From positions 65,818 through 129,817 of the forward strand of contig CAZIUL010000009.1 of NCBI GenBank assembly GCA_964542475.1: a stretch of DNA of 64,000 nucleotides, given 5' to 3'. Positions 4,010 to 64,000 of the stretch are shown here, piece by piece; positions within the stretch are counted from its first letter, which is position 1, and the number at the start of each line of letters is the position of its first letter. The translations under genes were made by a program, and so were the position numbers. The notes beneath the pieces are model-generated. The model searched no databases, was not told where the DNA came from, and worked only from the letters and a program-made list of their open reading frames with translations. Source of the DNA: an uncultured Phycisphaerales bacterium. GTDB lineage: Bacteria; Planctomycetota; B15-G4; CAYZWU01.

Positions 4010-4073
4010 GGGGATCAGGCTTTAGGGCTTTAGGAAGAGTCCGACAGGTCAGGCAAGTCCGACAACAGTGTTA

Positions 4074-4149
4074 ATCCGCATATTTCATCCTCTCTGCCAC
4101 AACTCAGTTTACGGCACCTCGCGACGAAGAGTATGAAATAAGCGGGTTA
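4074..4149. repeat. Family-A palindromic intergenic repeat (compact copy): ccgcatatttcatcctct ... agagtatgaaataagcggg
   Basis: Inverted copies of the ~38-nt motif cccgc(a/t)tatttcat(c/a)ctcttc..gcggcaccgtaa flanking a 36-nt spacer. The right arm is identical to the left arm of the 12331-12510 copy. Confidence 0.7.
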
Positions 4150-4161
4150 AGAACCACGAAC

Positions 4162-4200
4162 AAAAAAAAACCCCGGATCCGAGTCCGGGGTTTTCTTTGT
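4162..4200. terminator. Bidirectional rho-independent terminator
   Basis: A9 run, then hairpin ccccggatccgagtccgggg, then T-rich run. Serves the convergent genes 3014-4009 (+) and 4228-4950 (-). Confidence 0.75.
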
Positions 4201-10103: not shown

Positions 10104-12146
10104 TCAACCCTCATCTTCTTCTTTGTTATACTTGGCGATGATTGCTTCTGCAATCTTGGATGGGACCAGATCGTAGTGGGAAAACTCTATGGTATAGGAC
10201 CCCTCACCGGCTGTGATTGACCTCAGATCCGTTGAATATGTCTGAATTTCCTGAAGCGGCACCGTAGCCTTGATGATCTGAATGTCGCCGATGGAATCCA
10301 TTCCTTGAATCCTTCCCCTTCGTCCGTTCACGTCAGAGGTGATGTCCCCCATGAACTTCCCGGGAATCGAGACTTCAATATTGGCGATCGGCTCAAGCAA
10401 AACAGGCCGCGCCTTCATAAACGCGTCCTTGAAAGCTTTTGTGGCAGCAACCTTGAAAGAAGCCTCTGATGAGTCAACGTCGTGGTAGGAACCGTCTACC
10501 AATCTCGCCTTGACATCGACCACTGTATAACCCGCAATCACCCCGGCATCGAGCACTTCCCTTATCCCCTTCTCGACCGCTGGTATGTACTGCCTGGGTA
10601 TAACGCCGCCGACGATCTCGTCGGAAAAAACGAAACCCTCTCCTCTCTCAACGGGTTCAAGGATCAGCTCAACTTCACCGTACTGGCCGTGACCGCCCGT
10701 CTGTTTCTTGTGCTTGTGATGCCCCCCTGATGTCCCCTGTATTGTTTCTTTAAGAGGAATCTTCGGCAGCTTCGTCTCAACTTCCACCTTGTAGCGCGAC
10801 TTCATCCTCTTGATGATGTTTTCCAGGTGAAGCATACTTATCCCAAGAATGATCATTTCAGCGGTCTGGGGATCCCGCTTGGCTTCGAATGTAGAGTCCT
10901 CGGTGTTCAATTTTTTCAGGGCTGTACCGAGTTTTTGTTCGTCATTCCGGCTTTTGGGAGAAACCGCAAGAGAAACCATCGGCGCAGGCATGTCCATGGC
11001 CGGCACAACGACATTACTCTTTTCATCGGTTACCGTGTCGGAGTTCTCCAACGTTTCAATCTTCGAAAATACCAGTATGTCACCCGCCACAGTCTGCTCT
11101 TGAACAGGCTCGAGCTCCTTTCCCTGGGGGCGGAAGACGTTACCGATCTTCTCGTTTTTCTCGGTCCGTGGATTGTATATGATCAGGCCGGGACTGATGG
11201 ATCCGGTGTACATCCTGATGTAGTTCATCTTGCCCACATAAGGATCTGTCACCGATTTGAATACGAAACCAACCGGGTCATCGCTTTCCCTGGGATCAAG
11301 GCGGATTTCTTCGTCTCCCTTGGAAGCGGAGCGAAAAGGTCCATCCAATGGGGAAGGAGCGTATTCAGCCAGGAACTCCATCGCTTCCGCTACTCCAAGA
11401 TCCTTTTCCACGGCCGTGCAAAGCACGGGCACCAGGCTCTTGTTGTTGATGGCAATCCTTAGCAGTTTTTTCAGATCCGCCGGTTCGATGGTTTCGCCCT
11501 CGAGATATCTCTCCATCAGCTCTTCGTCGTTTTCGACCAGCGCTTCAATGAGATCCAACCTTGTTTGTTCGACCCGATCCTTCATGGAGTCGGGCGCTTT
11601 TTCTGGAGCGTTGAGGCAATCGACCAGGGTGGAAACCTTGCCCCCGGTCGTATCCGGAATAAAGACAGGATAAATGTTGCTGCCGAAGAACTCCCTGAGG
11701 TTCCCTATGAGCCCGTCCCAATCAACGTTTTCCATGTCGACCTTGTTGATGATGATCACCTTGGCAAGGTCCAGCTTACCGGCTTCCTCCCACAGCTTGC
11801 GTGTATTGTATAAGATACCGTTGAAAGCATTGATATTGACCAACGCTGTTTCAGCGGCATAAAGCGATGATATGGCTTCACCGATGAAATCGGGGTATCC
11901 GGGTGTATCCAACAGGTTGATTTCGTGCTCGTTGTGGTTCAGGTGCATGATTGACAGGTTGATCGAATGTTTCTTGTCCTTTTCTTCAGGATCGTAATCC
12001 GAAACGGACGTGTTGTCATCGATCTTGCCGAGCCTGGTCACAGCCCCTCCCTTGAAAAGAAGCGCATCGACCAGAGAGGTTTTCCCTGAGTCCGCCCCAC
12101 CGATAAAGGCTATGTTTCTTATAGCTTTTGCCTCATAGTCAGCCAT
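10104..12146 (-). CDS. Elongation factor G-like GTPase (EF-G paralogue, divergent P-loop)
   Basis: 680 aa. Five-domain EF-G architecture (G domain, then domains II to V). G1 motif GGADSGKTS instead of the canonical AHVDAGKTT. DTPGYPDF (G3) and NKVD (G4) present. Confidence 0.75.
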   Translation of the reverse strand: MADYEAKAIRNIAFIGGADSGKTSLVDALLFKGGAVTRLGKIDDNTSVSDYDPEEKDKKHSINLSIMHLNHNEHEINLLDTPGYPDFIGEAISSLYAAETALVNINAFNGILYNTRKLWEEAGKLDLAKVIIINKVDMENVDWDGLIGNLREFFGSNIYPVFIPDTTGGKVSTLVDCLNAPEKAPDSMKDRVEQTRLDLIEALVENDEELMERYLEGETIEPADLKKLLRIAINNKSLVPVLCTAVEKDLGVAEAMEFLAEYAPSPLDGPFRSASKGDEEIRLDPRESDDPVGFVFKSVTDPYVGKMNYIRMYTGSISPGLIIYNPRTEKNEKIGNVFRPQGKELEPVQEQTVAGDILVFSKIETLENSDTVTDEKSNVVVPAMDMPAPMVSLAVSPKSRNDEQKLGTALKKLNTEDSTFEAKRDPQTAEMIILGISMLHLENIIKRMKSRYKVEVETKLPKIPLKETIQGTSGGHHKHKKQTGGHGQYGEVELILEPVERGEGFVFSDEIVGGVIPRQYIPAVEKGIREVLDAGVIAGYTVVDVKARLVDGSYHDVDSSEASFKVAATKAFKDAFMKARPVLLEPIANIEVSIPGKFMGDITSDVNGRRGRIQGMDSIGDIQIIKATVPLQEIQTYSTDLRSITAGEGSYTIEFSHYDLVPSKIAEAIIAKYNKEEDEG

Positions 12147-12330
12147 GGATATCTCCCTGCTTTGTTTTTAAGCGTGAGCATAAGCCTGATCATGGTAAAG
12201 CCAAATGCCATGACAGGATATACATTGATCCGGTCCACAAGCTATGTATCACTCGTGGTTATTTACAAAAACGATCTATACTAATTCCAGATCCTGTATA
12301 AATCAAGCTCCGGTTTTAACATTTCACATC

Positions 12331-12510
12331 TAACCCGCTTATTTCATACTCTTCGTCGCGAGGTGCCGTAAACTGTGTTGTGGCAAGGCGCATGTCAGGA
12401 GACGACCGCAGGCCTGTTCCTACAGGTTGAGGATCGTCTCCTGGCATGAAACGCAGCCACGGCGCAGGTTACTGTGCCGCAGCAGAAGAGGATGAAATAT
12501 GCGGGCTAAA
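12331..12510. repeat. Family-A MITE-like element, full-length copy (~180 bp) with ~40-bp terminal inverted repeats and an internal hairpin
   Basis: Left end taacccgcttatttcatactcttcgtcgcgaggtgccgtaaactg. Right end is the reverse complement of cccgcatatttcatcctcttctgctgcggcacagtaa. Internal inverted repeat caggagacga/tcgtctcctg. The same ends recur at 6 other loci. Confidence 0.75.
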
Positions 12511-12587: not shown

Positions 12588-13469
12588 TTATCTCCATAGG
12601 GATGAAGCAAATCGCGGCCATTCCTCCAAGAGCTCGATGATCTCCGCCCTGAAGAATATAACGGTCACGACCCCCAATGAAAGGAAAGGCCCAAACGGGA
12701 CCTCATGCTTTCCGGTGATTAGCCTGTACGGCACGCCAACTATGCTGCCTGCCGCACAGCCCGCGACAAATACCATCAAAACACCTTCCCATCCGAACAT
12801 ACCACCCACAAAAGCCATGAACTTGACATCTCCCATGCCAAGGGCCTCCTTTTTCAGCGCGGCCTTTCCGATCCACCCAACGGCAAGGAGGGTTCCCCCG
12901 CCTACCAGAGCGCCGCCAAGCGAGGAGATGAGGCCCGCAAGATGGGCGTTTAAAGCCTCGATGAAAAGGCTGCTGTTCTCCTGCAAGCCCGGCAGGAGCG
13001 CGCATGCCAACGGTGCTGCCACAATCCCGGAATAGGTAATCTCATCCGGAATGATCTTGAAATCCAGGTCGATGAAAGTAACCACCAGCACGGTTGCTAG
13101 CATGTACATCTGGATGATGTAGATTCCTAAAAGTTGAAGACGTTCGGACCCGCTGTTGATGATGTCGGGTGCATGGCCGATGGTCAGGCACACGAATAGT
13201 ATTGATGTGAGGGCTTCGACCAAAGGATATCGCCACGAAAGCAAGCCGCCGCAAAAACGGCATCGGCCGCGCAAGCGGACGAACGATACCACTGGTATGT
13301 TGTCATACCATGGTATCGATTTTCCGCAAGCCGGGCAAAACGACCTCATTGGGCGTGTTACTGTAAGGGATTCCCTTGGAAGCCGGTAGATGAGAACATT
13401 GAGAAAGCTGCCGACCATGGCCCCAAAAACGCCCGCGACAACCGAAAACAAACAGATCGGAAAGCTCAT
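12588..13469 (-). CDS. pilD: Prepilin peptidase / N-methyltransferase PilD (A24 family)
   Basis: N-terminal tetra-Cys zinc motif (CPACGKSI...CRFCGG). Multi-TM body with the catalytic Asp region (GMGDVKFMAFVGG). 293 aa. Confidence 0.9.
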   Translation of the reverse strand: MSFPICLFSVVAGVFGAMVGSFLNVLIYRLPRESLTVTRPMRSFCPACGKSIPWYDNIPVVSFVRLRGRCRFCGGLLSWRYPLVEALTSILFVCLTIGHAPDIINSGSERLQLLGIYIIQMYMLATVLVVTFIDLDFKIIPDEITYSGIVAAPLACALLPGLQENSSLFIEALNAHLAGLISSLGGALVGGGTLLAVGWIGKAALKKEALGMGDVKFMAFVGGMFGWEGVLMVFVAGCAAGSIVGVPYRLITGKHEVPFGPFLSLGVVTVIFFRAEIIELLEEWPRFASSLWR

Positions 13470-14476: not shown

Positions 14477-17400
14477 CTAATACTTAAACCTCATCCGCAC
14501 GTAGTCGATTTGTGGTTTTTTGCTTTCCGGACTCAGGGTGCCAATCCAAGCTGAATCGAGCCTGATACGAAAACGGATGAACTGCTTCCCGGATAACTCG
14601 GTCAGGTCGTGTGTCCATGTGTCTTCGTTAACAACAGCTGGGTCTTCGTTCGCAACCTTTGATCCCGGGATCAGCGCATCGGTTCCCTGGAACTGAAAAG
14701 CCACATGGTTGTCCTCCGGGATATAGTCGATTTGGGCCACCTTACTATCCGGGGCTTCAACCTTGAAGTCGTTGGAGTCCTCATCATCGGGAGGAGTTGC
14801 ACCGTTCAACACATAATGACCGATAGTATATGCCTCAGCCCACGACTGTCCGCCTATGGTGGTTTCCCTGACCCCCCTGAAACCGTCCAGCAAGTCAGGA
14901 AATGTACCCGGTTCCGGGTTTTCGAACCAGAAATACGGCGGGATTTCATCGTTGATAGGGTTCCTGTCGATAATACGCCCCATGTCGATCCACTTGGACA
15001 CTGCATACGTATGCGAGCTTATGGTGGACTTGGTCTTATACGGATCCACAAGGCATTCAGTGGTTCTGGGAAACTCACCATAGTAGTTCTTGGGAGTGCC
15101 CTTGACCCGGACCTCAAAACGGGAATAGTAGACTTGCTGGCCTGCATTATAATGCTTCATCTTGTCAGGCTCCCATTGGATCTTGCAGATGTCGCATTCA
15201 ACCGATGTCCATTCTTTCGGCTCTCCATCAGGCCACCCCACCATGACCAGGTCGTTCTCCGGATCAGGCACCATAAGTTGAATGAGGCCGTATCCTCCAT
15301 ACCCGCCGTCTCCGCGTGACCAGGAACAAAAAGCCGAATAATTCAGGAGCCCGTTGCCTGGTTGGATTTTGCATGGCTCCAGGATTCCAACATAACCCAC
15401 TCCAGTGGTTTCCTTGGCGTCATCTCCCCAACCCCCAGCCACATTGAGACAACCGTTTTCTTCGATTGTGATGGTCTTTGCGGAGTTCAGGATGATGGCT
15501 CCTCCGCTGCCACCTCCCGCACCGCCTCCGAAACTGGAATGGCCGATCACTTCACCGCCCCCTCCTCGCCCGCCCATAGCATATATACAGCCGGTGCTCT
15601 CTATGCTGATTCCCTCCAGGCTGTGGATTGCGATGGAGCCGCTGCCGCCGCCGCCGCCGCCGCCCTTGGAATCGTAACAGCTTGCAGCCTTGGGAGGATT
15701 TTGCGCCGCGCCCTGACCCTTTGTAACCGGGCGCATGCTGTCCAGCCGTGAACCACCGCCACCCCCGCCCTGTCCGCCGATAAGCTCTTTCACCTCGCCG
15801 TATTCACCGATGAAATCGTTGTCCTCATCTCCATCCTTGAAAACCAAGTTTCCAATATCCCCGGGATGAGGTGCATGATCAATGTGCTCATCACCGGTGT
15901 TTCCGAACTCGTTTATCTTCGTCTGTTCATCAAGAGGATCGCCTTCATGCCATGTAGGATCGTATTCGTAAGATCCATCCCACCACTCCCAGACGTCCCT
16001 GATATAAAACTCCCCATCTTCATCCACACCATACTGCCCCTTCCCAGGATATCCTATATGTCCTTCCTGGTAAAAGGAGCCTCCTCCGCCGCCTGCGCCG
16101 CGGCTGTCAGGATCATTTTTCGAACCCTGCCAGGGAACAAACTTGTCCTTTGCGCCGCTCTCACCCCCAAAACCTCCTGTCTGCTTGATGTTGCCTGGAC
16201 CATAGCCTCTCTCGCCGGTCGGCACGGATTGAAGGTCTGTCAGGTTCTTGAAATTCGGGGGGATGGGAGGCTGACCCATGCCGCCGCGGCCGCCGCCGGG
16301 TCCCGGGGGGCCGCCAGGCGTCGGCATGAACGCAGAATTGAAAGTGGTGTCATTTGTTCCATTCTGCCCGGAAACGTCGATCGTGCCCCCTATCGTCACT
16401 TCTCCTGTAGCCGTAAAAACCAATGGTTTTGATCCCATGGCCATCACAGTCACACCGTACGGTATATTGATCTCCCTGAAATGGAACTCACCGGTCTTGA
16501 TAATAACAGGTTTTGTTATGTCAGGAGTTGCACCGTTGTTCAGAGGCAGCGGCTGGTAATCAGTATCCAGCATCACGATCGATGCCACACCAACCACGGG
16601 GCGGAAATCTCCGAGTTCCCCGCTACCGCTGAGACCGAGCCCGGCAAGAAGGTGCTTGTACTCAGGAGGTTGGCCATCCAAATCCTGAACGTTCCAGATA
16701 GCTCTGGCGTTGGCGAGCTCGTGCTTAGTCTGTTCCATCTCGTTATCGAGGAACTCTTCCATGAAGAAGTCTTCGATAACCGCATCACCTGGACCGGGAT
16801 CATAGGTTTCGAAGCTTCCAACGAATTCGGCACCGTACGGATCGAAGCCATAGTTTTCGTGCATGCTTCCACCGCTCAGGTTCTTCAATGAAAAACGCAC
16901 CATCATCTCGATGCGCTTTCCTATCGGGAGAATTCCGGAAGGTTCGAGCTTGACCGTAGCCCCGTGATATGAGTTGTTCAAAAGAGTAACCGTTCCACCC
17001 AGCTCGTAATGCCTGAGCGCGAAGTCTACCCTTCTATCGGAGGTCAGCTGTGCATCGTCGATCGCATGGGTTTCCTTCACAGACCCGGTTTGCAGGTCCA
17101 GATGGACCACCTCCATAGCGTTGGCCTCATAAAGAACCATTGTGTCGATATGAAAAAAATCCAAGCTGCAGTAATCGCCTGAAAGGCCGGACACCACGGT
17201 CTCACAGGTCAGGTTGGAGTTGATCTTTTCGATGGATGAGATGGCGTTCGGCGTGCCGGGATCATATACCCTAAGGCCGTAAAGAGCACCGTCCCTGCCC
17301 ATGGTCAGATCCACGAAGTCTCCAAGGCCGGCTACCAATGTTCCGAGCACGACCACAGCTCCGGTGTCCACGTCGATTTCCAAAAGGGAAGTTCCAAGGT

Positions 17401-18575
17401 CGTTCAAACCATAAAGCTTGCGCTGCAGCTCGGTATCCAGACGGATACAGATCGAACTTGCCTTGACTCCCAAAGGGCTGAATAACCTTTCGTTGGACAG
17501 CTCGCAGATCGTAAACGGCGGAGTGCCTGAAATATTCTCGAAGTCCGCGTCATAAAGGGCGGTCTCTGAGCAGACCAGCATCATGTGCTGTTTCGTTGCC
17601 ACAATCGACTTGACACCTACCTTGGTCATGTTGAAAAACGTATACCCCAGAAACTCGAACTCATCCGAGCCTGCTTCCATCATCGCAAGATATCCAAGCT
17701 CGGAGAATGTCTCGTCAACAGCCGTGTACATGACTGAATCATCGTATGCGAGAAATATGTTCTCCTCACTGACGGTATCCCCATCAAGGTCCGAGCCCTG
17801 GATGTTATCGCTGTCAAAATCAAGGGGCTGATCGAACTGAATCTCGATGTCCCTTGGCGCGGGAAAACCCTGCAACTCGCCTGAAACACTGTTGATGGGG
17901 AAATCCACGGTGCCGTCCACAGGATCGGTGGTCACCACTCCGGGTGGCAGGACCGGCTGGTTCTTGAAGAAAAAAGCAGGCATTTCTTCGGGCCAGGTTG
18001 TAAACTCGATCGGAAAATCCACACCTGGATCAATGGCAACCAGATCTTCGATACTCCCCGATGTTCCGGTCGGTACAAAAACGGTGTATGTATAACCCGG
18101 CAGAAGACCCGGGACGTTTTGGGCCACCGCATTTATCGAAAGATCGATCTCCCCCGTGGGTATATAGGGAGTAAAAACAACTACGTTGTCCATGATCTCG
18201 TATGTGCCCCTGGCAACGATTAGGTTCTTTGTCCCATCGAGAGCAACATCCGGGCCCTGATAATCCAAGCCGGGGTTGGCATTGATGAGAATGTTCCCTG
18301 AATGGACATCACCCGCTACCGGATCGGAAAAGGTGAACAGGACCTGCTGGCTCAACGGCACATTCGCAGGAGGTGTTTTCGTAGCTCCTGACAAGTCGGT
18401 GTATTCGGGAAAGGTTATGGATGTCAGCGTCTGGCCTTTGTATCCGGCCCCTCCATGTCCGCCGCCGCCGCCACCGCCGCCGCCGCCGCAGCTCGACAGG
18501 GCAAACGTAAACAGGAACGAGCAAAACAAAACCACTGAAAACCGAGCAGGATGAAATGCCTTAAACCGTTTCATG
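14477..18575 (-). CDS. Giant predicted surface lipoprotein, paralogue B (~1365 aa) with poly-Gly tether and internal Gly-rich / beta-helix-like repeats
   Basis: Likely start MKRFKAFHPARFSVVLFCSFLFTFALSSCGGGGGGGGGGHGG (AAGGA SD upstream). The track ORF begins 17 codons earlier at a GTG/TTG-type start. Internal tracts GGQGGGGGGS, KGGGGGGGSGS, GGRGGGGE, and the motif GGAIILNSAKTITIEENGCLNVAGG. Collagen-like PGGPPGPGGGRGG. Confidence 0.7.
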
Positions 18576-18667
18576 GTTCCAATTCCTTTATATTGAAAAC
18601 CGAGCCATACAATAAAAACTCGCATTTCCTGTACAAAAACTACGGCATCAGCTTCCAGATGCCATTG

Positions 18668-21600
18668 CTAATCTTCAACGATCAGATAAGGAATCACAAT
18701 CGAGTCTATGCTGGGAACCACCCCAGCATCCACATTTGCTGTAAACAGGGCCTTGAAACGAATATAATTGTAATTCTTATATGCCATATTCACATTGAAA
18801 CCCATAACCTCGCCAGGCTGAACCCACCCTGATTGACTGCCCGGGATATAAGGATTGGCCGTGGTTTGAAAGCTGAGGTCCAAGCCTGTCCCTTCAGGGA
18901 TATTTTCCAGATCCGGCAATATAATCGGGTTAATGAACTGCATGTCATAACCGCCTTGGATATCAGTGCCGAGATAAGGCGACACTATTGTAGATTTCCG
19001 TTTTACGTAGTCGAAGATCATGAAATACCGCGAATTGTCGCCGTATTTACCTGTAAAATTTGTCAAGGGGCCCTGGGCATTCGGATATTTGCCTGGTTGT
19101 GTACAACCGTAGACAAGGCCAATGACGGAGTTTGGACTGGTAGGATCGTCACCGCGTGTGTATACCCTGAACCTCGGCAGCGCGCTGGACAAGATCGCTG
19201 CATGATAGGTAAAACCGTTACTTATTGATGCGCTGGCCTTCGTGTTCGGGTCCGTCCTGTACTCGATAAGCATGGACTGGTTCGAGTCGTATTCAAAGCC
19301 CGGATTTCCGACCGGTTTGTCAAACTCCGGCCACGGTACGTAGTAAAAAAAATTCTGACTCCCAGCGTTTTTGGGCGCGTAGAGGTTATGCCAGTCCATT
19401 GAATAGGGCACACCATCATTGTTTTTCCCGAGCACAACTGTATGGACATAAGGCTGGCGGTTTTGATTGAAATTCTGAACGAGACCGCTTTGGGGGTGGT
19501 CCGGGATCCCATCGCAATTATCGTCGTTTGACAAAGGTACAATGTTTGTCAATGAAATGAGAATCGACATCTTCTCAATCACTGAGTTCGTTATCCAGCC
19601 GCCGATAGGAGCCCAGGAAAGGCCGATCAGATCCAGAACCGTATCCTCATAAGCAAGTATATCCGGGGAACAATCGCCCCGCCGGTATGTGTGTTGAAAC
19701 CGGCTCCCGTATGAACTGTTAACCGGCGTACCCGTGCCGAAGGGGAGTGCGAACAACGGATCCGGATAGTGCGGCGAGGACGGGGGTGGTGGATTCCATT
19801 CGTCGAAAATATGTTCAATGAACTCCACTGAATGTCCGCTCAAAAAACCGTTCAGGCCTAACGCGATGTCAGCGATGTGTGGACCATAGACCATGGGATC
19901 GCCTTGGCCATCGACCTGGTGGTCATAAAAGATACCACCCGAGATGGGCGGGTTTCCCACAGTTCCTGTTTCCGGCAAGCCCATGAACCTGTGCACCAAA
20001 ACGCCGTTCTCCGGACGGCTCTCCGGGTCAGGCGCTGCTTGAATGTTGAACTCGTACTTAAAATCCACCGCGGGCGGAAACGCCCCGTAACCCGTGCTGT
20101 CCGAATACGCCACGCACCATTTGCTCCCTTTATCGAAAAAGTAAGCGGGCAGCCCCAAAGCCTGTCCCCCGAGGCTCATGACCCCCAACACGCCGATCTT
20201 TTCCAGATCCTCTTCTACGCCCTCGGGCAGGTCATCGCCGAAAGAATCGTAAAAATCATTCAAGACCTGATCAGGGGGCACCGTGCGAATCGTCATGCGA
20301 AGAGATTTGGGCTGACCACCGAAGCCTACCAGCTGTTCCCCGGTAAGGCCGAACTGGTCGTCAACTATCGGTTCGAATGAAAGAATGCTGTTGCTTTTAC
20401 GTGCTGCCGTACGACCGACTTTCATGTAGTCGAAACCGGGATCTTCGATGTTCACGGAGCCTTTACAAACATAAAAAGTTTCGTACGGTCTGAACGAACC
20501 CGGATCCATGGCTTCTGAAAACCGGAAAGAAAGCCGCCAGTTGGAATCTACAGAATTGGTTCCGCTGGAGCCGGGATCGTAGTCAACTTCCTCCCAGATC
20601 TCATCGTTCTCGTTCCACTCCTCCCAGATCACGAAATTGAAAAGATCGGAGTTCTTGGCATCCTCAAGATCATCATCGTCTTTAGGGTAGTTATCCGGGT
20701 CTACGGCGGCCAAAGGATCTCCGGTTCCTGGGATCGGTTCGAAAAACTCGGCCCGCTGCAGGTGGTACTCGTCCGGATCCTGGACGCCTGGAATACCGGG
20801 ATCAGGCGGGACGTTGAACTGTCCCACTATATAAAGTGTGTCCGGCGTGTTGTGATCGACGCGTACTTTCTCCTCTGTCGCCGTATTTTGGCGCAGCGTC
20901 AACAGTGCTCCCGCCCACTCCCCATCGCCTCCGTTTGCTTCATCGTTGAAGCTGTTTTCCGGGTTCTGGGGGTCCCAGATCGGGCCCATATCCGGGTCAA
21001 CTATCGCTGTCAATCCGGAACCGTTGCCCACGGAACCCTCCTCGTCCTGATCGGAAGGATACCTTACTTCCCGTATGATCCTGGGCGGTGTCAGGTCAGG
21101 GAGAAAACCATTGAAAGAAATGTCTCCGAAGTTGATGAAATCGAGATAGGTATTTCCGGGATTGAAGCCTACCGGCTTGCCCGGTGTTCCCAGAAGATCT
21201 TCCCTCGCGCTCAATGAGGTGCCGGTAGCGGATTGGAGAACGTTGTTTCCTGTTCCTTCCGAGTAAATCCTGATTCTCAGGTATCCATCCTGAGAGGCTA
21301 TTGGGTTCCCTGCCTGGTCGAATATGAGGGGGCTAGCTGGAAAACCCACCGCACCCTCGACAACCGGATTCAAAACCAACCTGTCGCCAAACAGCACCGC
21401 TTCAACCGAAATCAAATTATCAATATCCGTCCTGATCTGGACCGGGCTCTGAGCCGTTAAAAAACCGTTACCGTCTAGGTTAAGGCACTTGCTGTCCAGC
21501 TCCTTCGAAAAATCCAGGATCAACACACTGTTTCTTGGAATAATCGGTACCTTGAAAGACGAGTTGGGGAGATCCGTGAGACCGAAAGAACCAAGGTCGA

Positions 21601-21952
21601 GCTTCTTCACTTGGTTAAGCGGCATGCCAGGATCGAAAAGCGATTTGGGGTAACCGCTCACCAGGAGTCCGGTGATGGGGTCCGTCTCGATAATGGTTTC
21701 CGGGCTGACCACTTCAGCAACATTCCCCGCAGGATCAAGCAGTGACCTTCCGAAATATATCTCTTCCAGATAAAATTCGCTATCCCCTTGTTGCCCACCG
21801 GGATTGGAAGAACCACCTCCTCCACCCCCGCCGCCCCCGCCGCCCCCGCCGCCGCATCCCCCAAGAACCACGGCGACGACAAGAAAAGAACCAAAGCATA
21901 CCTTACCGAATCTAACTGCTGTGGACCCACTCATGTAACTTACCCTCAGCAA
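18668..21952 (-). CDS. Giant predicted surface lipoprotein, paralogue C (~1090 aa) with poly-Gly tether
   Basis: N-terminus ...MSGSTAVRFGKVCFGSFLVVAVVLGGCGGGGGGGGGGGGGGSSNPGG (ATG at 21934 with GAGG upstream, or TTG at 21952). Long Asp/Gly/Pro-rich body. 42 bp downstream of paralogue B. Confidence 0.7.
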   Translation of the reverse strand: MLRVSYMSGSTAVRFGKVCFGSFLVVAVVLGGCGGGGGGGGGGGGGGSSNPGGQQGDSEFYLEEIYFGRSLLDPAGNVAEVVSPETIIETDPITGLLVSGYPKSLFDPGMPLNQVKKLDLGSFGLTDLPNSSFKVPIIPRNSVLILDFSKELDSKCLNLDGNGFLTAQSPVQIRTDIDNLISVEAVLFGDRLVLNPVVEGAVGFPASPLIFDQAGNPIASQDGYLRIRIYSEGTGNNVLQSATGTSLSAREDLLGTPGKPVGFNPGNTYLDFINFGDISFNGFLPDLTPPRIIREVRYPSDQDEEGSVGNGSGLTAIVDPDMGPIWDPQNPENSFNDEANGGDGEWAGALLTLRQNTATEEKVRVDHNTPDTLYIVGQFNVPPDPGIPGVQDPDEYHLQRAEFFEPIPGTGDPLAAVDPDNYPKDDDDLEDAKNSDLFNFVIWEEWNENDEIWEEVDYDPGSSGTNSVDSNWRLSFRFSEAMDPGSFRPYETFYVCKGSVNIEDPGFDYMKVGRTAARKSNSILSFEPIVDDQFGLTGEQLVGFGGQPKSLRMTIRTVPPDQVLNDFYDSFGDDLPEGVEEDLEKIGVLGVMSLGGQALGLPAYFFDKGSKWCVAYSDSTGYGAFPPAVDFKYEFNIQAAPDPESRPENGVLVHRFMGLPETGTVGNPPISGGIFYDHQVDGQGDPMVYGPHIADIALGLNGFLSGHSVEFIEHIFDEWNPPPPSSPHYPDPLFALPFGTGTPVNSSYGSRFQHTYRRGDCSPDILAYEDTVLDLIGLSWAPIGGWITNSVIEKMSILISLTNIVPLSNDDNCDGIPDHPQSGLVQNFNQNRQPYVHTVVLGKNNDGVPYSMDWHNLYAPKNAGSQNFFYYVPWPEFDKPVGNPGFEYDSNQSMLIEYRTDPNTKASASISNGFTYHAAILSSALPRFRVYTRGDDPTSPNSVIGLVYGCTQPGKYPNAQGPLTNFTGKYGDNSRYFMIFDYVKRKSTIVSPYLGTDIQGGYDMQFINPIILPDLENIPEGTGLDLSFQTTANPYIPGSQSGWVQPGEVMGFNVNMAYKNYNYIRFKALFTANVDAGVVPSIDSIVIPYLIVED

Positions 21953-22395: not shown

Positions 22396-22460
22396 TAACC
22401 CGATTATTTCATACTCTTCGTCGCGAGGTCCCCGAGCAGAATAGGATGAAAAAATCGGGC
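22396..22460. repeat. Family-A palindromic repeat (short hairpin copy)
   Basis: taacccgattatttcatactcttcgtcgcgaggt ... aggatgaaaaaatcggg, i.e. the motif plus a degenerate inverted partner. Confidence 0.6.
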
Positions 22461-22465
22461 TTAGT

Positions 22466-28217: not shown

Positions 28218-28453
28218 CTACCCATCTATCCCCAAGGTATGCCGTACAGAATATCGTTTCTTCAGGCGACAGGCGAAAAAAGGAAGTCATGTCCATGAGG
28301 AATTAATTGAGACAACGGAGGTGTTTAATTATTAATGAGTTAGCGCAATCAAGCCCCTTTTCACCAGCCACGGTAAAAAAAACCGTGTTTCTTAACTCTT
28401 GTCGGACTTGCCTGACCTGTCGGACTCTTCCGGAAGCCTTCTTCGCTATGAGA

Positions 28454-36086: not shown

Positions 36087-37118
36087 TCAACCCTTGATTC
36101 TGGATGCCAAGCCCATCGCCACCCCGAGGGACAGCGCATTCTCCGTGAGCAGTTCCGAATCCACCATGTCCGGATCCACGCCTACCCCGGCCACCGGGCT
36201 CCAGTAGATCGTTTTACGTTCAAAGATCTTTTCGAAGGCTTCGTCCAGGCCAAGCGCGCGACCCCCGCCGCCCGAAAGATAGATCGCCTCAACCTTGCTC
36301 TCGTACTGGTTTTCGTAATAGTCGAGAGAAAGGTTGATTTCGCTTCCCATCTCCTCGATTCCGGGGGCTATGGCATCCGCAACCTTGTCCGCTTCATCAC
36401 CGGGAGACCTCTTCATCTGCTCGCTTTCGAACAGCTCCAGGCCCTGCTTCTTTGCTATATATGAGGTGAAGTCGTTCCCACCCATGTAGATTTCGCGTGT
36501 AAAATACAACTCCATGCCCTGCAGGATGCTGATGCATGTCTTGTTTCCGCCTATGTCCAACAAGGCGACAACCTTGGTTTCCACGTCGTTTTCCGCGTTC
36601 ACGGAGTTCGAAAACTCGAAGGCGTTTGCCAGGGCAAAAACATCAACATCGGTAATCGCGGGCTGTAGGCCGCAGCCTTGCAGGAGCCGGTACTGATCTT
36701 CAACAACTTCTCTCATCACCGCGACCAGGATCACCCTCATTTCGTTTTTTGACAAACCGGTCGCTTCCTTCAGCCTCTGGCTGTCCAGCAGCACGTCATC
36801 GATCTCGAACGGTATGTATTTGTCAGCCTCGTACCGGAGCGCATTGTTGAGGTTATCGTCGGGCATCTCGATGATGTTGAGAAAGCGAACAATGACGGAT
36901 CTGCCGGAAACAGCCGTGGCCACACGTTTGCTTTTGAAGCGACAGGTGCGCAACAGCTCGCTCAAGGCGTCAGCCCTGGCATCTTCAGATGAAATATCTA
37001 TCTGGCCGTAACCGGTAATAATGTAATCATCTCGGTCAAATGAGAGCTCGATAGCCTTGATACATTCCGATCCCAGATCCAACCCTACGATAGACTTCCT
37101 TTTGCGCAAGAATACCAT
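36087..37118 (-). CDS. pilM: Type IV pilus assembly protein PilM (actin-like ATPase)
   Basis: N-terminus IVGLDLGSECIKAIEL. Actin/FtsA fold motifs (DIGGNKT..., GGGGRALGL). 343 aa. First gene of the operon. Confidence 0.9.
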   Translation of the reverse strand: MVFLRKRKSIVGLDLGSECIKAIELSFDRDDYIITGYGQIDISSEDARADALSELLRTCRFKSKRVATAVSGRSVIVRFLNIIEMPDDNLNNALRYEADKYIPFEIDDVLLDSQRLKEATGLSKNEMRVILVAVMREVVEDQYRLLQGCGLQPAITDVDVFALANAFEFSNSVNAENDVETKVVALLDIGGNKTCISILQGMELYFTREIYMGGNDFTSYIAKKQGLELFESEQMKRSPGDEADKVADAIAPGIEEMGSEINLSLDYYENQYESKVEAIYLSGGGGRALGLDEAFEKIFERKTIYWSPVAGVGVDPDMVDSELLTENALSLGVAMGLASRIKG

Positions 37119-37345
37119 TCCGGAGATCCTTATATATGCTGTTCGACGTGTATGATAGAACCCCTTTTCCCTTTAAACCCAGCCGATGTCTGATAGGGCA
37201 CAATCGGCGGTACTCTCGAATCTTCGGAAATTAACCTCCCTAACTTTAAACAAATCCCCATCCGCACGCCCACAAGGCAAAATTAGCGCGTCGAGCAATG
37301 CCGGCTGGTACGCAGGCAACCCACCCCTGAGGCTGTCAAGGGCTA

Positions 37346-37383
37346 TCCCGCATATTTCATCCTCTTCTGCTGCGGCACCGTAA
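37346..37383. repeat. Family-A repeat, solo copy (atcccgcatatttcatcctcttctgctgcggcaccgtaa)
   Basis: Exact match to the motif core. Generates the spurious ORF tail ...IPHISSSSAAAP in 37186-37383(+). Confidence 0.7.
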
Positions 37384-37445
37384 AGCGGGCTATGGCATCA
37401 AACGATATGAAAGGGAAAAAAGAGGGCGTGGGCAAAAAGCGATTA

Positions 37446-37706
37446 TCACTCGAAAAAGCCATTGGTCACGAGATCGACAAGCGAACAGATGAGCTCATCC
37501 GAATCAACGCCTTCGCTGATGAGTTCCATCTCATGGCCATAAGCACAGGCCAAGGTCATCAGTTGAATAATCGACTTTCCATCCACCGTGCAGCCATTGC
37601 ATGTAACAGTGAGACTCGCCTGGAACCGGGTGGAAATCTCCACGAATTTGCTAATAGGCCTCGCGTGAAGCCCGGCGCGGTTTGTAATCTTCACTTTCTT
37701 TCTCAA
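37446..37706 (-). CDS. ptsH: Phosphocarrier protein HPr / NPr
   Basis: KVKITNRAGLHARPISKFVEI... (the His-containing active-site region) and an overall HPr-like ~87 aa. No ATG in frame, so a TTG/GTG start near 37706 is inferred. The track ORF runs into the family-B repeat. Confidence 0.7.
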   Translation of the reverse strand: MRKKVKITNRAGLHARPISKFVEISTRFQASLTVTCNGCTVDGKSIIQLMTLACAYGHEMELISEGVDSDELICSLVDLVTNGFFE

Positions 37707-37744
37707 CTTATGGGCGTTCCGTACTCTGGCTGACCCTTGGTACA

Positions 37745-37903
37745 AGGGTCAGAGGTTGAGAGGTTGTGGAGAGCGATGATGATAATCGGACAATTCGAGG
37801 CTTGGCAGTCGGCACCGGTTCATCAATGTACAACAGGCCGAGGGTTTGATGCCGAGACTGATGCGGAGTTCAACGATGTCTACAGCAACCTTGAACCTCT
37901 GAA
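37745..37903. repeat. Family-B MITE-like element (~160 bp; TIR ggtcagaggttg ... caaccttgaacctctgaa)
   Basis: Highly similar to 42075-42236, including a conserved internal core (ccggttcatcaatgyacaaca.gc.gagggttt.at.cc.ag...agttcaacgat). Inserted between ptsN and hpr. Confidence 0.75.
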
Positions 37904-37917
37904 AACAAACGCGTGTA

Positions 37918-42074: not shown

Positions 42075-42236
42075 GGTTCAGAGGTTGTAGAGGGGGATGA
42101 TGAAAATCGAGTGATTCGAGGATAGGAGGATTGGCAGTTGCCGCCGGTTCATCAATGCACAACAAGCAGAGGGTTTAGATACCAAGGCCGATTCGTAGTT
42201 CAACGATCTCCACCGACAACCTTGAACCTCTGAACC
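42075..42236. repeat. Family-B MITE-like element, second full copy
   Basis: ggttcagaggttgtagagg ... caaccttgaacctctgaacc. Collinear with 37745-37903. Lies between recR and ybaB. Confidence 0.75.
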
Positions 42237-42247
42237 TCGAACCTCCG

Positions 42248-45149: not shown

Positions 45150-45240
45150 AGCCCGCATATTTCATCCTCTTCTGCTGCGGTACCGTAATCTGCGCTGCGG
45201 CTGCGTTTCATGCCGGGAAACGATCCTCAACCTGTAGGAC
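45150..45240. repeat. Family-A element, truncated copy (left ~90 bp) abutting the tadA stop
   Basis: gcccgcatatttcatcctcttctgctgcggtaccgtaatctgcgctgcggctgcgtttcatgccgggaaacgatcctcaacctgtagga aligns base for base with the right half (reverse complement) of the 12331-12510 element. Confidence 0.7.
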
Positions 45241-45713: not shown

Positions 45714-46162
45714 CCAAAATCGTTTGCCTCATGAACCACAACAATAGGGCAAAAAAAACATGTCCTTATCCCGCATGCAGCATGGATAAGGATTGCATTG
45801 TTACCGAAGCCGACAGAGCCGCACTTACAGCTGCAAACTGTTCCTATCTGAGAAGGCCGTTTATCGAACAACCTATAGTAAGAAATTTTACAGAATTTTC
45901 TAAATTTTTACATCAAAGCACCGATTATAAAATTGGTTGGCAGTTTCTGTTCGTTTCTTCTTTTTGTCGGGTTCATTTCCATCTCAAAGTTCCCAACAAA
46001 AAACTGAAGAAATGCTTCTAACCTTTCAGGTTGAACTGTTTCAACAATTGTTCTTCATAAAATTGTCGTTCAAACACAGCGCCGCACCATGCATTTTGTC
46101 GTGTAAAACGAACCGATGATCAAAGTTCCTGCTAACAGGATATGGAACTTTTTAGTGGCGCG

Positions 46163-46193
46163 CTCGAGAGTTCTTGGTCTTTAGACTCTCGAG
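46163..46193. promoter_or_regulatory. Perfect 9-bp inverted repeat ctcgagagt-N13-actctcgag upstream of the histone-like gene (candidate operator)
   Basis: Palindrome centred ~45 bp upstream of ATG 46224. Preceded by a ~130-bp AT-rich tract (45880-46010). Confidence 0.35.
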
Positions 46194-46223
46194 AAAAATT
46201 CACTCTTTTAAGGAGTAGTGGAG

Positions 46224-46466
46224 ATGGCAGCGAAGAAGAAGACCAAGAAGGTGGCGAAAAAGAAAAAAGTCGCCAAGAAAAAGAAGGTGGTCAAGAAAAA
46301 GGTAGCCAAGAAAAAAACAAAGAAGAAGGCGAAGAAAAAGGTAGCCAAGAAAAAAGTCGCCAAGAAGAAGACAACCAAGAAGAAGACAAAGAAGAAAGCA
46401 AAGAAAAAGGTAGCTAAGAAGAAGAAGACAAAAAAGAAAGCGAAGAAAAAAGCAAAGAAGCGTTAA
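46224..46466 (+). CDS. Histone H1-like Lys/Ala-rich basic protein (about 80 aa of KKxAKKK repeats)
   Basis: AAGGAG SD 8 nt upstream of ATG. Entire ORF is (V/A)KKKxKKK repeats with strong codon periodicity. Terminator immediately downstream. The antisense ORF 46200-46508 is just the complement. Confidence 0.7.
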   Translation: MAAKKKTKKVAKKKKVAKKKKVVKKKVAKKKTKKKAKKKVAKKKVAKKKTTKKKTKKKAKKKVAKKKKTKKKAKKKAKKR

Positions 46467-46495
46467 TCGAGCAACATCTTCGTGACCGTAATCCG

Positions 46496-51290: not shown

Positions 51291-51410
51291 TGCCTCCCTC
51301 CGCTAAGGAGCTTTTTTATTTTTTTACCGGTTTGCTGGTAGCGATACCGCCTGCTCACCACTGTTTATAACGTATACATCGCCAGGATAACCGAAGAAAA
51401 CAATAGCAAA

Positions 51411-51427
51411 GGTTCAGAGGTTCAAAG
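51411..51427. repeat. Family-B repeat, left-end fragment (ggttcagaggttcaaag)
   Basis: Matches the left terminal inverted repeat of the 42075 and 37745 copies. Together with the right-end fragment at 54656-54684 it brackets the YfhO gene 51500-54442. Confidence 0.5.
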
Positions 51428-51499
51428 TTCTAGGTTTAAGGATACAGCCTGTAAGCATGGGAACCTGTTGTCAATCATTGATTTAGCAGGTGGATCATG

Positions 51500-54655: not shown

Positions 54656-54684
54656 CAACCTTGAACCTCTGAACCTTGAACCTC
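54656..54684. repeat. Family-B repeat, right-end fragment with internal duplication (caaccttgaacctctgaaccttgaacctc)
   Basis: Matches the right terminal inverted repeat of family B. Confidence 0.5.
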
Positions 54685-58929: not shown

Positions 58930-61589
58930 TTCCGGGGCGAAGCAGCACCTTGCAGGCGATGGTGATTCTCGGCCTTGCCGCCCTCCTTCTCTTTGCGGAG
59001 CTGCTGTTTTCTGGAAGGCTTCCGTTCCCGGCGCACACCGACGCTTTCCTGCCATGGAGAAGCGGCTCAAGCCCGGAGCACCTGGCTGCGGTCAGGGAGC
59101 GCATGAACCACGAGGTCACGGACAAGCAGTTCTCGTTTCACCCGGACAACCAGGTCGCCTGCGACGCCTTTCAGGACGGCCGCCTGCCGCTCTGGAATCC
59201 GTACCAGATGGCAGGGCTTCCCTACCTTGGCCAGAGCCTCTACGGTGTCTTTTACCCGCTGAACCTTCCCATGTTCATTCCAGGCCCGCCGGAAAAGTGG
59301 TACGCGCCGCTCGCGGCTTTGCACTTCTTCATGGCCGGTTTTTTTACATATCTTTTGCTGAAACGTCTCGGTCTTTCAGGCGCGGCCGCGCTTGCCGGTG
59401 GACTGATCTTCATGTGCTCGGCGAACATGACCGCCAGGTTCCACTACTACATGACGATCTACCCCATGGCCTGGGCCCCGCTCATGCTCTACCTCGTGCA
59501 CAAATACAACAGGGACCGCTCAATCCTGAGCCTTTGCGGACTCGCCGCGGTGAGCGCTCTCACCCTTCTGACCGGGTTCCAGCAGGTGGCTGCCTACCTG
59601 TTTTGCCTGGTCATGGTTTTCAGCCTGTTCTGGTGCGCCCGAGACCGGTACGAGATCAGGGTGAAGCCGGGCCTGCTCGCTGTGGCAGCTGTCGGGGCCG
59701 CCGGACTCGCTGCTGCAGCCGCCGGCATGAATCCGTGGATGGCCTACACATTCGGCGCGCCCCTGGCGGTTCTATGCTTCTTCGCGGTAGGCAAGGGGTT
59801 TTTCCGGTGGATCTCGGCCGCGCTGCCCGTGGGGTTCGCGCTCTGCCTGAGCGTAGGCCTTGCAGCGGTGCAGCTTGCGCCGGTCCTGGCCTTGATGCCG
59901 CTTTCGATGCGGGTTCCCATCGCTCCCATGTCGATGATCAATGATCTGCACCTTCCGGGCGCGGGATTGATCGGGCTCATCATGCCCACCCTGCTGAACG
60001 ACCCGGTCTGGGCTCTTTCAAGCACTTCCTTCAACCTGGCGGGCACGGTGCTGGCGGGCGGGGTTAAAGGGCTGAACTACACGGAGAACAGCCTCTACAT
60101 CGGAGTGCTTCCCCTGGTCCTTGTCGCCTTTTGCGCGTTCAAAGGCAAGGGCAGCGGCAAAGCGGTTCTGATCGCTGCACTCTGTCTGGTTTGCGTGGGC
60201 ATCGCCTTGGGGATCTCCTTGGTCATTCTTCCCTACTGGTTAGCCCCGCCGTTCAGGTACGGCGATCCCAGGCGGGCACTGCTCGTTTTCTCGTTCCTGA
60301 TGAGCCTTCTGGCAGCTTTCGGATTCGAACGTATCCGAAAGGGCGCAATAGGGACAACGCGCGCTCTCGTGCCTGCCCTAGCTCTTGTGGCAGTTGCCGT
60401 TGCATGCGCGGCAGGAGCGGTTTTCGCATGCGTGCCGATCGCGGAGTTCTTTCACGGATGCCTGGTCGCGAGCTCCCCGGAAGCTGCATCACAGCTGCCT
60501 GGAGGTTTAACGGATGAGATCATCATGGAAAACGGCGGACAGGTCCGCTGGGCCCTGCTCCATCTCGCGCTCGCGTCCGCGCTCGGGGGCGCGGCCCTGA
60601 TGCGCCTGTCGTTCAGGCCGGGCCGCCTTGCCATCGCGTTGGTGCTTCTTGCCGTGGCCGTGGATCTTATGCCGCTTTCCTGGCGTGTAAACCCGCCCCA
60701 GGACCCAGAAGGTTTCCTGGGAACCGATCCGAGCATCGCTGTCATGTGCAAAGACACGGACAACGGCCCGTTCAGGATCTACCGCTACACCGAAGAGACC
60801 GCCTCCGCCGCCCGGATTCCACTCCCCCCTGACATGACGACACATTTCCAAATCGAGGATGTGGAAGGCCACGTGGCACAGCCGCTCAAAAGGTACTTCG
60901 AGCTCTTAAACGCGGTGCAGCCGGATCCCCCGGTTGCGCCCATAGGCTCCAAGGTGCTGCCGATCTCAAAAACCGAAGCGCTCGATTCCCCGCTGCTCGA
61001 TCTTCTCGGGGTCAGGTACATGCTAACAACCCGCGAAATCCCCGATGGAATGGGATATGAGAGCGTCCATGCCGCAAATGGAATCCATGTCTACGAAAAC
61101 AAGGAGGCGTTCCCGCGCGCTTTCCTCGTTCCATCGGCGCGGTTCATCGAAGCGGAAGATCAGGATGCCCGGGCCGAATCGCTGAAAGCCGTGCTTGAGC
61201 TCGGTCCGGGACAGGGCCTGCGCTCGCAAGCCGTGGTGGAAGGAGATCCTTTCGGTTTCTTTCCCGCTGAAGGCCCGCTGCCGGAGGCCAGGGTCATCTA
61301 CCGCTCCCCTGAGGAGGTGGAGGTCGCCTTTGACACCCCGGCGCCGGGCGGGTTGCTGGTGCTCACCGACACATACTACCCCGGATGGAAGGCCGAGATC
61401 GACGGGAAAGAACACCCGGTCATGCCTGCTGACCACGCATTCCGCTGCGTGTGCGTGCCGCGAGGAAGCCGAAAGGTCGTGTTTTCTTTCGAACCTCCCG
61501 AGGTAAAGGTGGGCATCGCTGTGAGCCTGGCGAGTGTTGCCTTGTTGCTCCTCGCCTCAGCCTGGGTCCTCCTCAAAAAACGCCCGTAG
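58926..61589 (+). CDS. YfhO-family polytopic membrane transferase-like protein (887 aa), second paralogue
   Basis: Many TM helices. C-terminal motif VLTDTYYPGWKAEIDGKEHPV...RKVVFSFEPP plus a terminal TM. Same architecture as 51500-54442. Confidence 0.65.
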   Translation: MIPGRSSTLQAMVILGLAALLLFAELLFSGRLPFPAHTDAFLPWRSGSSPEHLAAVRERMNHEVTDKQFSFHPDNQVACDAFQDGRLPLWNPYQMAGLPYLGQSLYGVFYPLNLPMFIPGPPEKWYAPLAALHFFMAGFFTYLLLKRLGLSGAAALAGGLIFMCSANMTARFHYYMTIYPMAWAPLMLYLVHKYNRDRSILSLCGLAAVSALTLLTGFQQVAAYLFCLVMVFSLFWCARDRYEIRVKPGLLAVAAVGAAGLAAAAAGMNPWMAYTFGAPLAVLCFFAVGKGFFRWISAALPVGFALCLSVGLAAVQLAPVLALMPLSMRVPIAPMSMINDLHLPGAGLIGLIMPTLLNDPVWALSSTSFNLAGTVLAGGVKGLNYTENSLYIGVLPLVLVAFCAFKGKGSGKAVLIAALCLVCVGIALGISLVILPYWLAPPFRYGDPRRALLVFSFLMSLLAAFGFERIRKGAIGTTRALVPALALVAVAVACAAGAVFACVPIAEFFHGCLVASSPEAASQLPGGLTDEIIMENGGQVRWALLHLALASALGGAALMRLSFRPGRLAIALVLLAVAVDLMPLSWRVNPPQDPEGFLGTDPSIAVMCKDTDNGPFRIYRYTEETASAARIPLPPDMTTHFQIEDVEGHVAQPLKRYFELLNAVQPDPPVAPIGSKVLPISKTEALDSPLLDLLGVRYMLTTREIPDGMGYESVHAANGIHVYENKEAFPRAFLVPSARFIEAEDQDARAESLKAVLELGPGQGLRSQAVVEGDPFGFFPAEGPLPEARVIYRSPEEVEVAFDTPAPGGLLVLTDTYYPGWKAEIDGKEHPVMPADHAFRCVCVPRGSRKVVFSFEPPEVKVGIAVSLASVALLLLASAWVLLKKRP

Positions 61590-61611
61590 GGGCGAAAACC
61601 CTTCCGCCCTC

Positions 61612-61651
61612 TAACCCGCATATTTCATCCTCTTCTGCTGCGGCACCGTAA
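61612..61651. repeat. Family-A repeat, solo copy
   Basis: taacccgcatatttcatcctcttctgctgcggcaccgtaa. Generates the spurious ORF tail ...NPHISSSSAAAP. Confidence 0.7.
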
Positions 61652-61652
61652 A

Positions 61653-61690
61653 CAAAAAAAAGGGGCGCTTTTCAGCGCCCCTGATTTTTT
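61653..61690. terminator. Bidirectional rho-independent terminator
   Basis: aaaaaaaa-ggggcgcttttcagcgcccc-tgatttttt. Lies between the convergent YfhO (+) and citrate synthase (-) genes. Confidence 0.8.
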
Positions 61691-63241: not shown

Positions 63242-63991
63242 TTATAGCGGTTCTCTTCTCCCGATCCCCACCCCGGCCAGGTAAAGGAAAAGCGTCACAG
63301 TCGCCAACAGGTGAAGGGCCGCGGGTACACAGCTAGAGATTGACCCGCCTGCCAGGGTGATGGGATCGAGGCGGCTGAACGCGGGTGTAAAAAGCGCCAG
63401 CGGGAGGGGGATGAAATCGGAGGCGTAACCCAGCACAAGGACAAGCGCGGCGCACACACATGCCGGGGCATATGAAAAAAACCTGGATATCATCAAGACA
63501 AGCGCACACACAGGCAGGCAGGAAAAAAAAGCGCACACTGTCCCGGTCAAGGGTCCTGCCCGGACGGCTGCCCTTGAAACGCAAATTTCCCAGACCACGG
63601 ACAGGAAAACGCCGCCAAGCAGGAAATAGATGAGAAGCGCCAGGGCAAACCCGGTAAAAAGGCCTGTAACAACCGCGTTCTTTCCAGGAGAAAGGGCGAA
63701 AAAAACCTCGCTGGCCCGGCGTCCTTTCGAAGGCACCAGCAGAAGGGGAACGAAAATCAGAGCGCTCAAGCAGCCCCCTGTGTAAAGCGTGGAAACTCCG
63801 GCATCCGTGTAATGGCGCGCGTCAGCCGCGATCCCCGGGGAAAACGGCACTGTACTCAGGCAGCTGAGCACGATAAAAAACGCGGAACAGATCAGGAACC
63901 CCGGGCGTCTGGCAGTGTCGAGAAAAGCGACCCTTGCAAAGGCGGTCATCTGGTTAATGAAAGCGGTGGATTTGTTCATCTTAACCCGCAT
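63242..63991 (-). CDS. Polytopic membrane protein, function unknown
   Basis: 249 aa, about 6 hydrophobic helices, no recognisable motif. Start uncertain. Confidence 0.4.
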   Translation of the reverse strand: MRVKMNKSTAFINQMTAFARVAFLDTARRPGFLICSAFFIVLSCLSTVPFSPGIAADARHYTDAGVSTLYTGGCLSALIFVPLLLVPSKGRRASEVFFALSPGKNAVVTGLFTGFALALLIYFLLGGVFLSVVWEICVSRAAVRAGPLTGTVCAFFSCLPVCALVLMISRFFSYAPACVCAALVLVLGYASDFIPLPLALFTPAFSRLDPITLAGGSISSCVPAALHLLATVTLFLYLAGVGIGRREPL

Positions 63992-64000
63992 ATTTCATCC
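63982..64000. repeat. Family-A repeat, copy cut by the window end (taacccgcatatttcatcc)
   Basis: Exact match to the first 19 nt of the motif. Confidence 0.6.

Follow-up and report, generated by a model that had tools for sequence, protein, structure and literature searches.

MITEs that are palindromic over their whole length are known from ERIC and YPAL in Yersinia and other enterobacteria and from Correia/NEMIS in Neisseria (PMC3733652). The REP/REPIN unit is a self-palindrome of 20-40 bp that is tagged GTAG or CGTC at one end (PMC3733652), and the insertion sequence IS5 makes 4-bp target-site duplications (TSDs) with the motif 5'-YTAR-3' (PMC5009759). Here we describe a repeat, family A, found in a 64,000-nt stretch of DNA (the window, meaning the whole stretch analyzed). 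We assign it, with a probability of roughly 85%, to a foldback-type MITE family of an uncultured marine Planctomycetota bacterium. Family A is previously undescribed; in kind it is ordinary selfish DNA and does not represent a new kind of system.

The original prediction had placed a short motif at seven loci of the window. Scanning for TAACCCGCWTATTTCATMCTCTTC with at most three mismatches returns eight matches in the window against 0.00 expected from 100 dinucleotide-preserving shuffles, and each of the seven loci is real; a ninth family-A copy, at 63982, is cut by the window end. A repeat search ties together positions 4072, 12331, 22396, 37344, 45149, 61612, and 63982, and the seven window loci are recovered by both blastn and nhmmer. 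The loci of the original prediction read as 4072-4149, 12331-12508, 22396-22461, 37344-37396, 45150-45239, 61612-61653, and 63982 onward. Flanking DNA reached through the window proteins adds a full copy, L024:1989-2160, which lies 8 kb left of the window. A second contig, reached via a paralogue of the window-linked GT39/TPR protein (246-kb JGI Ga0171658_1000005 and ENA scaffold_5234, same ENA sample as the window), contains three more, at L039:1-119, L039:3885-4056 (full length), and L039:6290-6440. This contig has the same GC content as the window (0.53) and a tetranucleotide correlation with it of r = 0.92, compared with only 0.53-0.76 for relatives, and thus fits the same genome. Confinement of the repeat to one region, which the original prediction had named as speaking against itself, is therefore not what we find.

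Family A totals 11 loci in ~96 kb of the same genome, distributed over two contigs. If this density of ~1 copy per 9 kb holds, the genome-wide count is, by extrapolation, probably in the hundreds. By exact protein matches the window corresponds, in reverse, to positions 88-64087 of scaffold_112 (129,904 bp) in ENA ERZ23498658. Contigs near-identical to the window are present in several JGI, ENA, and Logan assemblies. Across the independent ENA, JGI, and Logan assemblies, 12 contigs break inside copies at a total of 15 termini, which is the behavior expected of a high-copy repeat. A search of genome contigs with a 20-mer element pattern gave, among the matches listed (at least nine), only single chance matches in unrelated taxa. 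The best named homologues of the EF-G paralogue and of the GT39/TPR protein are from Planctomycetota MAGs.

The full element measures 172 bp (CCCGC...GCGGG), a length that is identical in all four full copies. These share 92-98% mutual identity, and similarity ends abruptly at CCCGC and GCGGG, beyond which the flanks are unrelated. The leading TAA, which the original prediction had counted as part of the motif, belongs to a 4-bp flanking direct repeat, and the element proper at this locus is 12334-12505. The master element starts with CCCGC(T/A)TATTTCAT(A/C)CTCTTC and the inverse forms the opposite end, with CCCGCTTATTTCATACTCTTC and CCCGCATATTTCATCCTCTTC as terminal inverted repeats (TIRs). 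An A end (CCCGCTTATTTCATACTCTTCGTCGCGAGGTGCCGTAAAC...) and a B end (CCCGCATATTTCATCCTCTTCTGCTGCGGCACCGTAA...) can be distinguished and are inverted in the 12331-12508 copy, which is indeed full and two-ended as had been proposed. The whole 172 bp form an imperfect palindrome (67 positions match between the aligned 86-nt consensus arms), and the same copy folds into one long hairpin, with -106.2 kcal/mol and z = -10.8 on the plus strand and -92.2 kcal/mol on the minus strand. The element has no coding capacity and contains stops in all six frames; its six-frame peptides have no match at E <= 1 among 5.8 billion proteins.

Outside CCCGC/GCGGG we find 4-bp direct repeats whose sequence varies by locus. 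Five are perfect (CTAA/CTAA at 12334, TTAG/TTAG at L024:1989, TTAA/TTAA at 4075, CTAT/CTAT at 37347, and CTTG/CTTG at L039:3885), and two contain one mismatch (CTAA/TTAA at L021:8864 and CTAA/CTTA at 22399); copies with just one flank available show TTAG, CTAG, CTAA, and CAAG. The variable positions 1 and 4 match directly and not as complements, and CTTG and CTAT match too, so that we regard the repeats as target-site duplications and not as part of the TIRs. Such duplications, which the original prediction had suggested looking for, are thus present, 4 bp long, matched within each locus and differing between loci. All four variants of the YTAR consensus (CTAA, TTAG, TTAA, and CTAG) are seen, and a YTAR 4-mer stands on at least one side at 8 of the 11 loci; the CTAT and CTTG duplications are off the consensus. 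A 2-bp TA duplication of the IS630/mariner type is ruled out, as the fourth base and the CTTG copy fit a 4-bp repeat. A 3-bp TAN duplication is ruled out as well, because the 4-bp model fits all copies. Judged from the length and consensus of the duplications alone, the transposase would most likely be of the IS5 type, with other IS families that make 4-bp duplications also possible. The readable ~96 kb of this genome yielded neither an autonomous element nor a transposase with ends that match, and a Pfam scan of the unannotated ORFs beside the L039 copies detected no transposase. A family-A copy sits at the 3' end of each of two GT39/TPR paralogues that are 51% identical (L024:1960-2175 and L039:6260-6445). 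Both gene ends (TTAGCCCGCTGA and CTAAGCCGCTGA) resemble an element terminus plus target 4-mer (CTAA+CCCGCT), a likeness which suggests that family A may prefer TIR-like targets.

The window copies retain different portions of the element. The full 172-bp copy (12334-12505, plus strand) has its A end on the left and its B end on the right, is bordered by CTAA at 12330-12333 and 12506-12509, and lies between a pilD-like gene (12588-13469, minus strand) and an EF-G paralogue (10104-12146, minus strand). An internally deleted 72-bp copy (4075-4146, minus strand) consists of ~18 nt of the B end and ~55 nt of the A end, with TTAA at 4071-4074 and 4147-4150; the genes on either side converge on it, and a strong terminator (4167-4194) is 18 nt away. 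A second internally deleted copy of 61 bp (22399-22459, plus strand) is more diverged and combines ~34 nt of the A end with ~28 nt of the B end between CTAA and CTTA, with minus-strand genes on either side. The 43-bp mini copy (37347-37389, minus strand) comprises 40 nt of the B end and the A-end terminal nucleotides, is flanked by CTAT at 37343-37346 and 37390-37393, and is located between HPr (37446-37706, minus strand) and pilM (36087-37118, minus strand). These 72-, 61-, and 43-bp copies keep both termini and the flanking repeats and are devoid of the center.

Single-ended forms occur as well. The truncated ~90-bp copy that had been predicted at 45150 is an 88-nt half element (45152-45239, minus strand), which extends from the B terminus to the exact center of the palindrome, shares 92% identity with the B arm of the full copy, and has CAAG as its left flank; it lies between the stop of a deaminase gene (45243) and a tRNA (44975). 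A solo B end of 39 nt (61615-61653, minus strand; left flank CTAA) has a YfhO-like gene and a citrate synthase gene converging on it, and a bidirectional terminator (61661-61682) is 7 nt away. The predicted locus at 63982 is real and can be refined: positions 63985-64000 (minus strand) are the first 16 nt of the B end of a full 172-bp copy that runs past the window (L021:8864-9035) and is flanked by CTAA and TTAA. As each short form is structurally unique, we interpret the set as products of in-situ deletion from an unstable palindrome that probably decayed in place, rather than as separately transposing subfamilies.

The window also contains other repeats and RNA genes. The segment 44340-44975 (minus strand) encodes a large SRP RNA of the bacterial type (129 bits) together with two tRNA genes, with a tRNA located 177 nt from the half element at 45152-45239, which lies upstream. 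Further along, a lysine-rich ORF (46142-46470, plus strand) with degenerate KKKVAKKK-type tandem repeats, in 10 overlapping 69-nt copies, resembles a histone H1-like or nucleoid protein. A 44-nt repeat with two TGTCGGACT units is present at 4026-4069 and 28395-28438 of the window (93% identical) and at L021:8838-8860; it directly abuts a family-A insertion in two cases (4075 and L021:8864), and the TGTCGGACT 9-mer alone shows no enrichment. A second, unrelated MITE-like family of ~155 bp (37752-37906 and 42083-42237, 82% identical) has the inverted termini GGTTCAGAGGTTG... and ...CAACCTTGAACCTCTGAA. The 20-mer at its terminus has 4 occurrences where 0 are expected, and solo ends are found at 51410-51429 (minus strand) and 54657-54676 (plus strand).

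We compared the syntenic loci of four related planctomycetes (L018-L020, L036-L038, L042, and L043) using blastn-short and nhmmer --max and detected no family-A copies. The EF-G of L018-L020 is 75% identical and the gene order is the same over 22 kb; that of L036-L038, which come from the same sample, is 67% identical. The spacer from pilD to EF-G measures 236 nt in L018 versus 441 nt here, and the conserved block starts 5 nt past the insertion. The same comparison places two giant proteins of the type IV pilus cluster (14477-18625 and 18668-21952, both minus strand; 1382 and 1094 aa, with poly-Gly/Cys runs) at conserved positions in L018 and L036; neither has a Pfam match on record, and a direct Pfam scan of the 1094-aa protein returned none. 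The L024:1989-2160 insertion lies where the GT39/TPR gene and cutA converge. Removal of the element and of one TTAG yields ...AAATCGTTAGCCCGCTGA, and the restored GT39/TPR ORF ends in ...KSLAR*, exactly the aligned position at which ten GT39/TPR orthologues stop. In the relative L042 no element intervenes: the TGA stop of the TPR gene and the cutA (CutA1) stop are immediately adjacent. The orthologous site is demonstrably empty in this relative, and the insertion is lineage-specific. No present/absent site polymorphism of family-A copies was seen within the population, and current activity of the family is conjectural. Thus, the proliferating non-autonomous, MITE-like element of the original prediction is borne out by TIRs, missing coding capacity, sharp ends, locus-specific TSDs, dispersed copies, and absence from relatives, and to these features of a MITE can be added a length of 172 bp, within the 70-300-bp range, and an empty site.

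All seven window loci are located in non-coding DNA, which makes up ~11% of the window (P about 2e-7 for random points), in line with the claim that the copies are all intergenic. The accompanying claim of a position at operon ends and next to terminators holds in part: terminators (4167-4194 and 61661-61682) adjoin two of the seven window loci. Copies occur in both orientations relative to the flanking genes, in convergent, tandem, and divergent contexts and at the 3' end of one gene. Several lie within pairs of genes that point the same way, where transcription of the copy is inevitable. In the rather unlikely case that the host has co-opted copies, the intra-operon hairpins (pilD/EF-G paralogue, HPr/pilM, and GT2/249-aa gene) could modulate expression, being either RNase-sensitive or stabilizing.

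The element also contributes to reading frames. The predicted fake ORFs exist as out-of-frame stretches ending in ...PHISSSSAAAP* (37177-37383 and 61433-61651) that are not called as genes, and the GT39/TPR protein at L024 has an element-encoded 10-aa C-terminal tail, LFHTLRREVP. A conserved, outward-facing AAGAGGA-N6-ATG is found in the B end. Both ENA and JGI start the 249-aa gene (63242-63991, minus strand) at an element-internal ATG, 6 nt after an element-borne AAGAGGA (Shine-Dalgarno), and the B end of the 63985 copy is 5 nt upstream of the second ATG of this gene, at 63979. Under the same rather unlikely co-option, the AAGAGGA-N6-ATG of the B end could act as a portable module for translation initiation, from which the 249-aa protein would now start. 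We also tested for a sigma-70 promoter in the B end and rejected it: there is one weak 9-of-12 match, which spans the boundary, and the total is not above that of shuffles. The public start call of a BlaI/Penicillinase_R-like repressor (L039:3489-3944, minus strand) is also inside a family-A copy, and a 113-aa ORF called by JGI (37392-37733, plus strand) begins at the edge of the 37347 copy, runs antisense to HPr (37446-37706, minus strand), and is probably spurious.

One feature of the palindrome does not sit easily with the MITE model. Between the consensus arms there are six transitions, eight transversions, and some indels. Each of the six transitions gives a G.U pair on the A-to-B strand, and the opposite strand shows no such pair (two-sided p = 0.03); the fold energies of the consensus are -112 kcal/mol on one strand and -89 kcal/mol on the other. 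A purely DNA-level parasite does not predict such a 6:0 asymmetry, which counts against the MITE model to this extent. It may reflect chance or mutational bias, and it is the sole hint that folding of one strand, as RNA or as single-stranded DNA, mattered. We consider it rather unlikely that the element goes beyond junk in the sense that its master sequence was shaped for one-strand folding and that its copies were in addition co-opted by the host.

A very low probability is given to a conserved structured RNA, either a small RNA or a cis-regulatory or processing hairpin under selection at the RNA level. The high stability of the hairpin, the G.U asymmetry, and the necessary transcription of several copies are what such an RNA would share with family A. 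In Rfam, however, no credible family is found at the gathering threshold or at E <= 10: the window contains only the SRP RNA and two tRNAs, and the element region only chance miRNA matches (E > 3), so that the check with Rfam/Infernal suggested at the outset leaves no family to explain the element. Five copies show 2 double changes together with several broken pairs, and their covariation term is +3.84 (positive values being penalizing); for three copies shuffles reach the observed covariation in 173 of 500 cases, although the copies in both sets are too similar to inform. Orientation relative to the flanking genes is not fixed, truncations are unrelated between copies, no common promoter or terminator exists, and the hairpin is missing from the orthologous intergenic regions of the four relatives that have the same gene order.

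Slightly less credible still, and highly improbable in our view, is a REP/REPIN-like system, in which the ~40-nt end module would be the unit, inverted doublets would form the hairpins, and a RAYT protein (HUH/Y1) would move single-stranded DNA. Solo modules of 39-43 nt do occur alongside hairpin doublets, the copies are strictly intergenic, and wobble pairs on one strand only would suit a single-stranded intermediate. Against this stand the locus-specific 4-bp direct repeats, since REP/REPINs make no target duplication, and the length of the full element, which is 172 bp and not 20-40 bp. No RAYT gene is present in the readable DNA. The 40-nt module is not self-palindromic, containing only a 5-bp complement (CCGCA/TGCGG), and has no terminal GTAG or CGTC, which together with the TSDs excludes REP/REPIN membership.

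A protein-binding or regulatory DNA site repeated at many operons (an operator, a nucleoid-protein site, or a terminator module) is scarcely plausible. It would be compatible with the intergenic location, with the strong terminators that adjoin two copies, and with the conserved AAGAGGA-N6-ATG facing outward from the B end. Yet the copies take no consistent position, being found between convergent, tandem, and divergent gene pairs and at a gene 3' end; terminators are near only 2 of 8 loci, TSDs are present, and relatives that keep the same operons are without the repeat. The two alternatives offered by the original prediction, a structured RNA and a regulatory site, are in our analysis both disfavored by the mixed orientations, the varied truncations, and the lack of a shared promoter or terminator and of useful covariation. 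An origin as integron attC sites or gene-cassette boundaries can be dismissed: the imperfect palindrome falls within the attC size range and two copies are preceded by ATCTAAC, which fits RYYYAAC, but the R'' and R' cores fit these 2 copies only, no integrase is found, TSDs are present, and a cassette reading is refuted by the gene context, in which copies stand 2-25 kb apart among housekeeping genes whose synteny relatives share.

We return to the foldback-type MITE and propose the following course of events. The gene for a DDE transposase, most likely of IS5 type, would lie elsewhere in the genome. The enzyme would bind the ~21-24-bp TIRs, cut YTAR tetranucleotides with a 4-nt stagger, and insert the element there, and repair of the cut would leave a target-site duplication of 4 bp. 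Once inserted, the long palindrome would decay in place: central deletions would give rise to the short two-ended hairpins (72, 61, and 43 bp), and loss of one arm would leave a half element or a solo end (88 and 39 nt). Insertions would persist only in the ~11% of non-coding DNA or at extreme 3' gene ends.

Family A explains why assemblies of this planctomycete population are fragmented at the same places, and it accounts for annotation artifacts such as gene starts and tails inside the element and the antisense 113-aa ORF. The 172-bp consensus can be used for masking or scaffolding these MAGs. The family represents a dense set of MITEs whose YTAR signature is clean and IS5-like, from a phylum in which such elements have been little described, and its natural insertions within operons and at gene ends form a small set for testing the effects of MITEs on expression.

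Comparison with IS5 and IS5-derived MITEs reveals a shared 4-bp TSD with the 5'-YTAR-3' consensus (PMC5009759). In contrast to IS5, family A has no attached transposase gene, nor does the readable ~96 kb contain a partner IS; its termini start with CCCGC, the likeness to IS5 is one of TSDs only, and two family-A targets (CTAT and CTTG) are off the consensus. With REP/REPINs it shares a short, palindromic form, an intergenic location, and occurrence both singly and in inverted doublets, whereas TSDs, the missing tag, a unit that is not self-palindromic, and a much greater length set family A apart. ERIC, YPAL, and Correia/NEMIS show no sequence similarity to family A in the collections searched, and viral contig, plasmid, and phage collections contain no similar sequence either (plasmids and phages by blastn). 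The host phylum differs (Planctomycetota), and effects on mRNA are documented for those families, whereas family A is known here from sequence alone. Correia elements are reported to duplicate TA at their target, in contrast to the 4 bp (YTAR) duplicated by family A. In architecture, ERIC, YPAL, and Correia/NEMIS nevertheless resemble family A: like them, it is 70-300 bp long, has TIRs and no ORF, includes truncated and internally deleted variants, and would reach hundreds of intergenic copies, a number extrapolated in the case of family A. A further likeness is that these elements form long RNA hairpins when co-transcribed and can donate expression signals to their neighbors.
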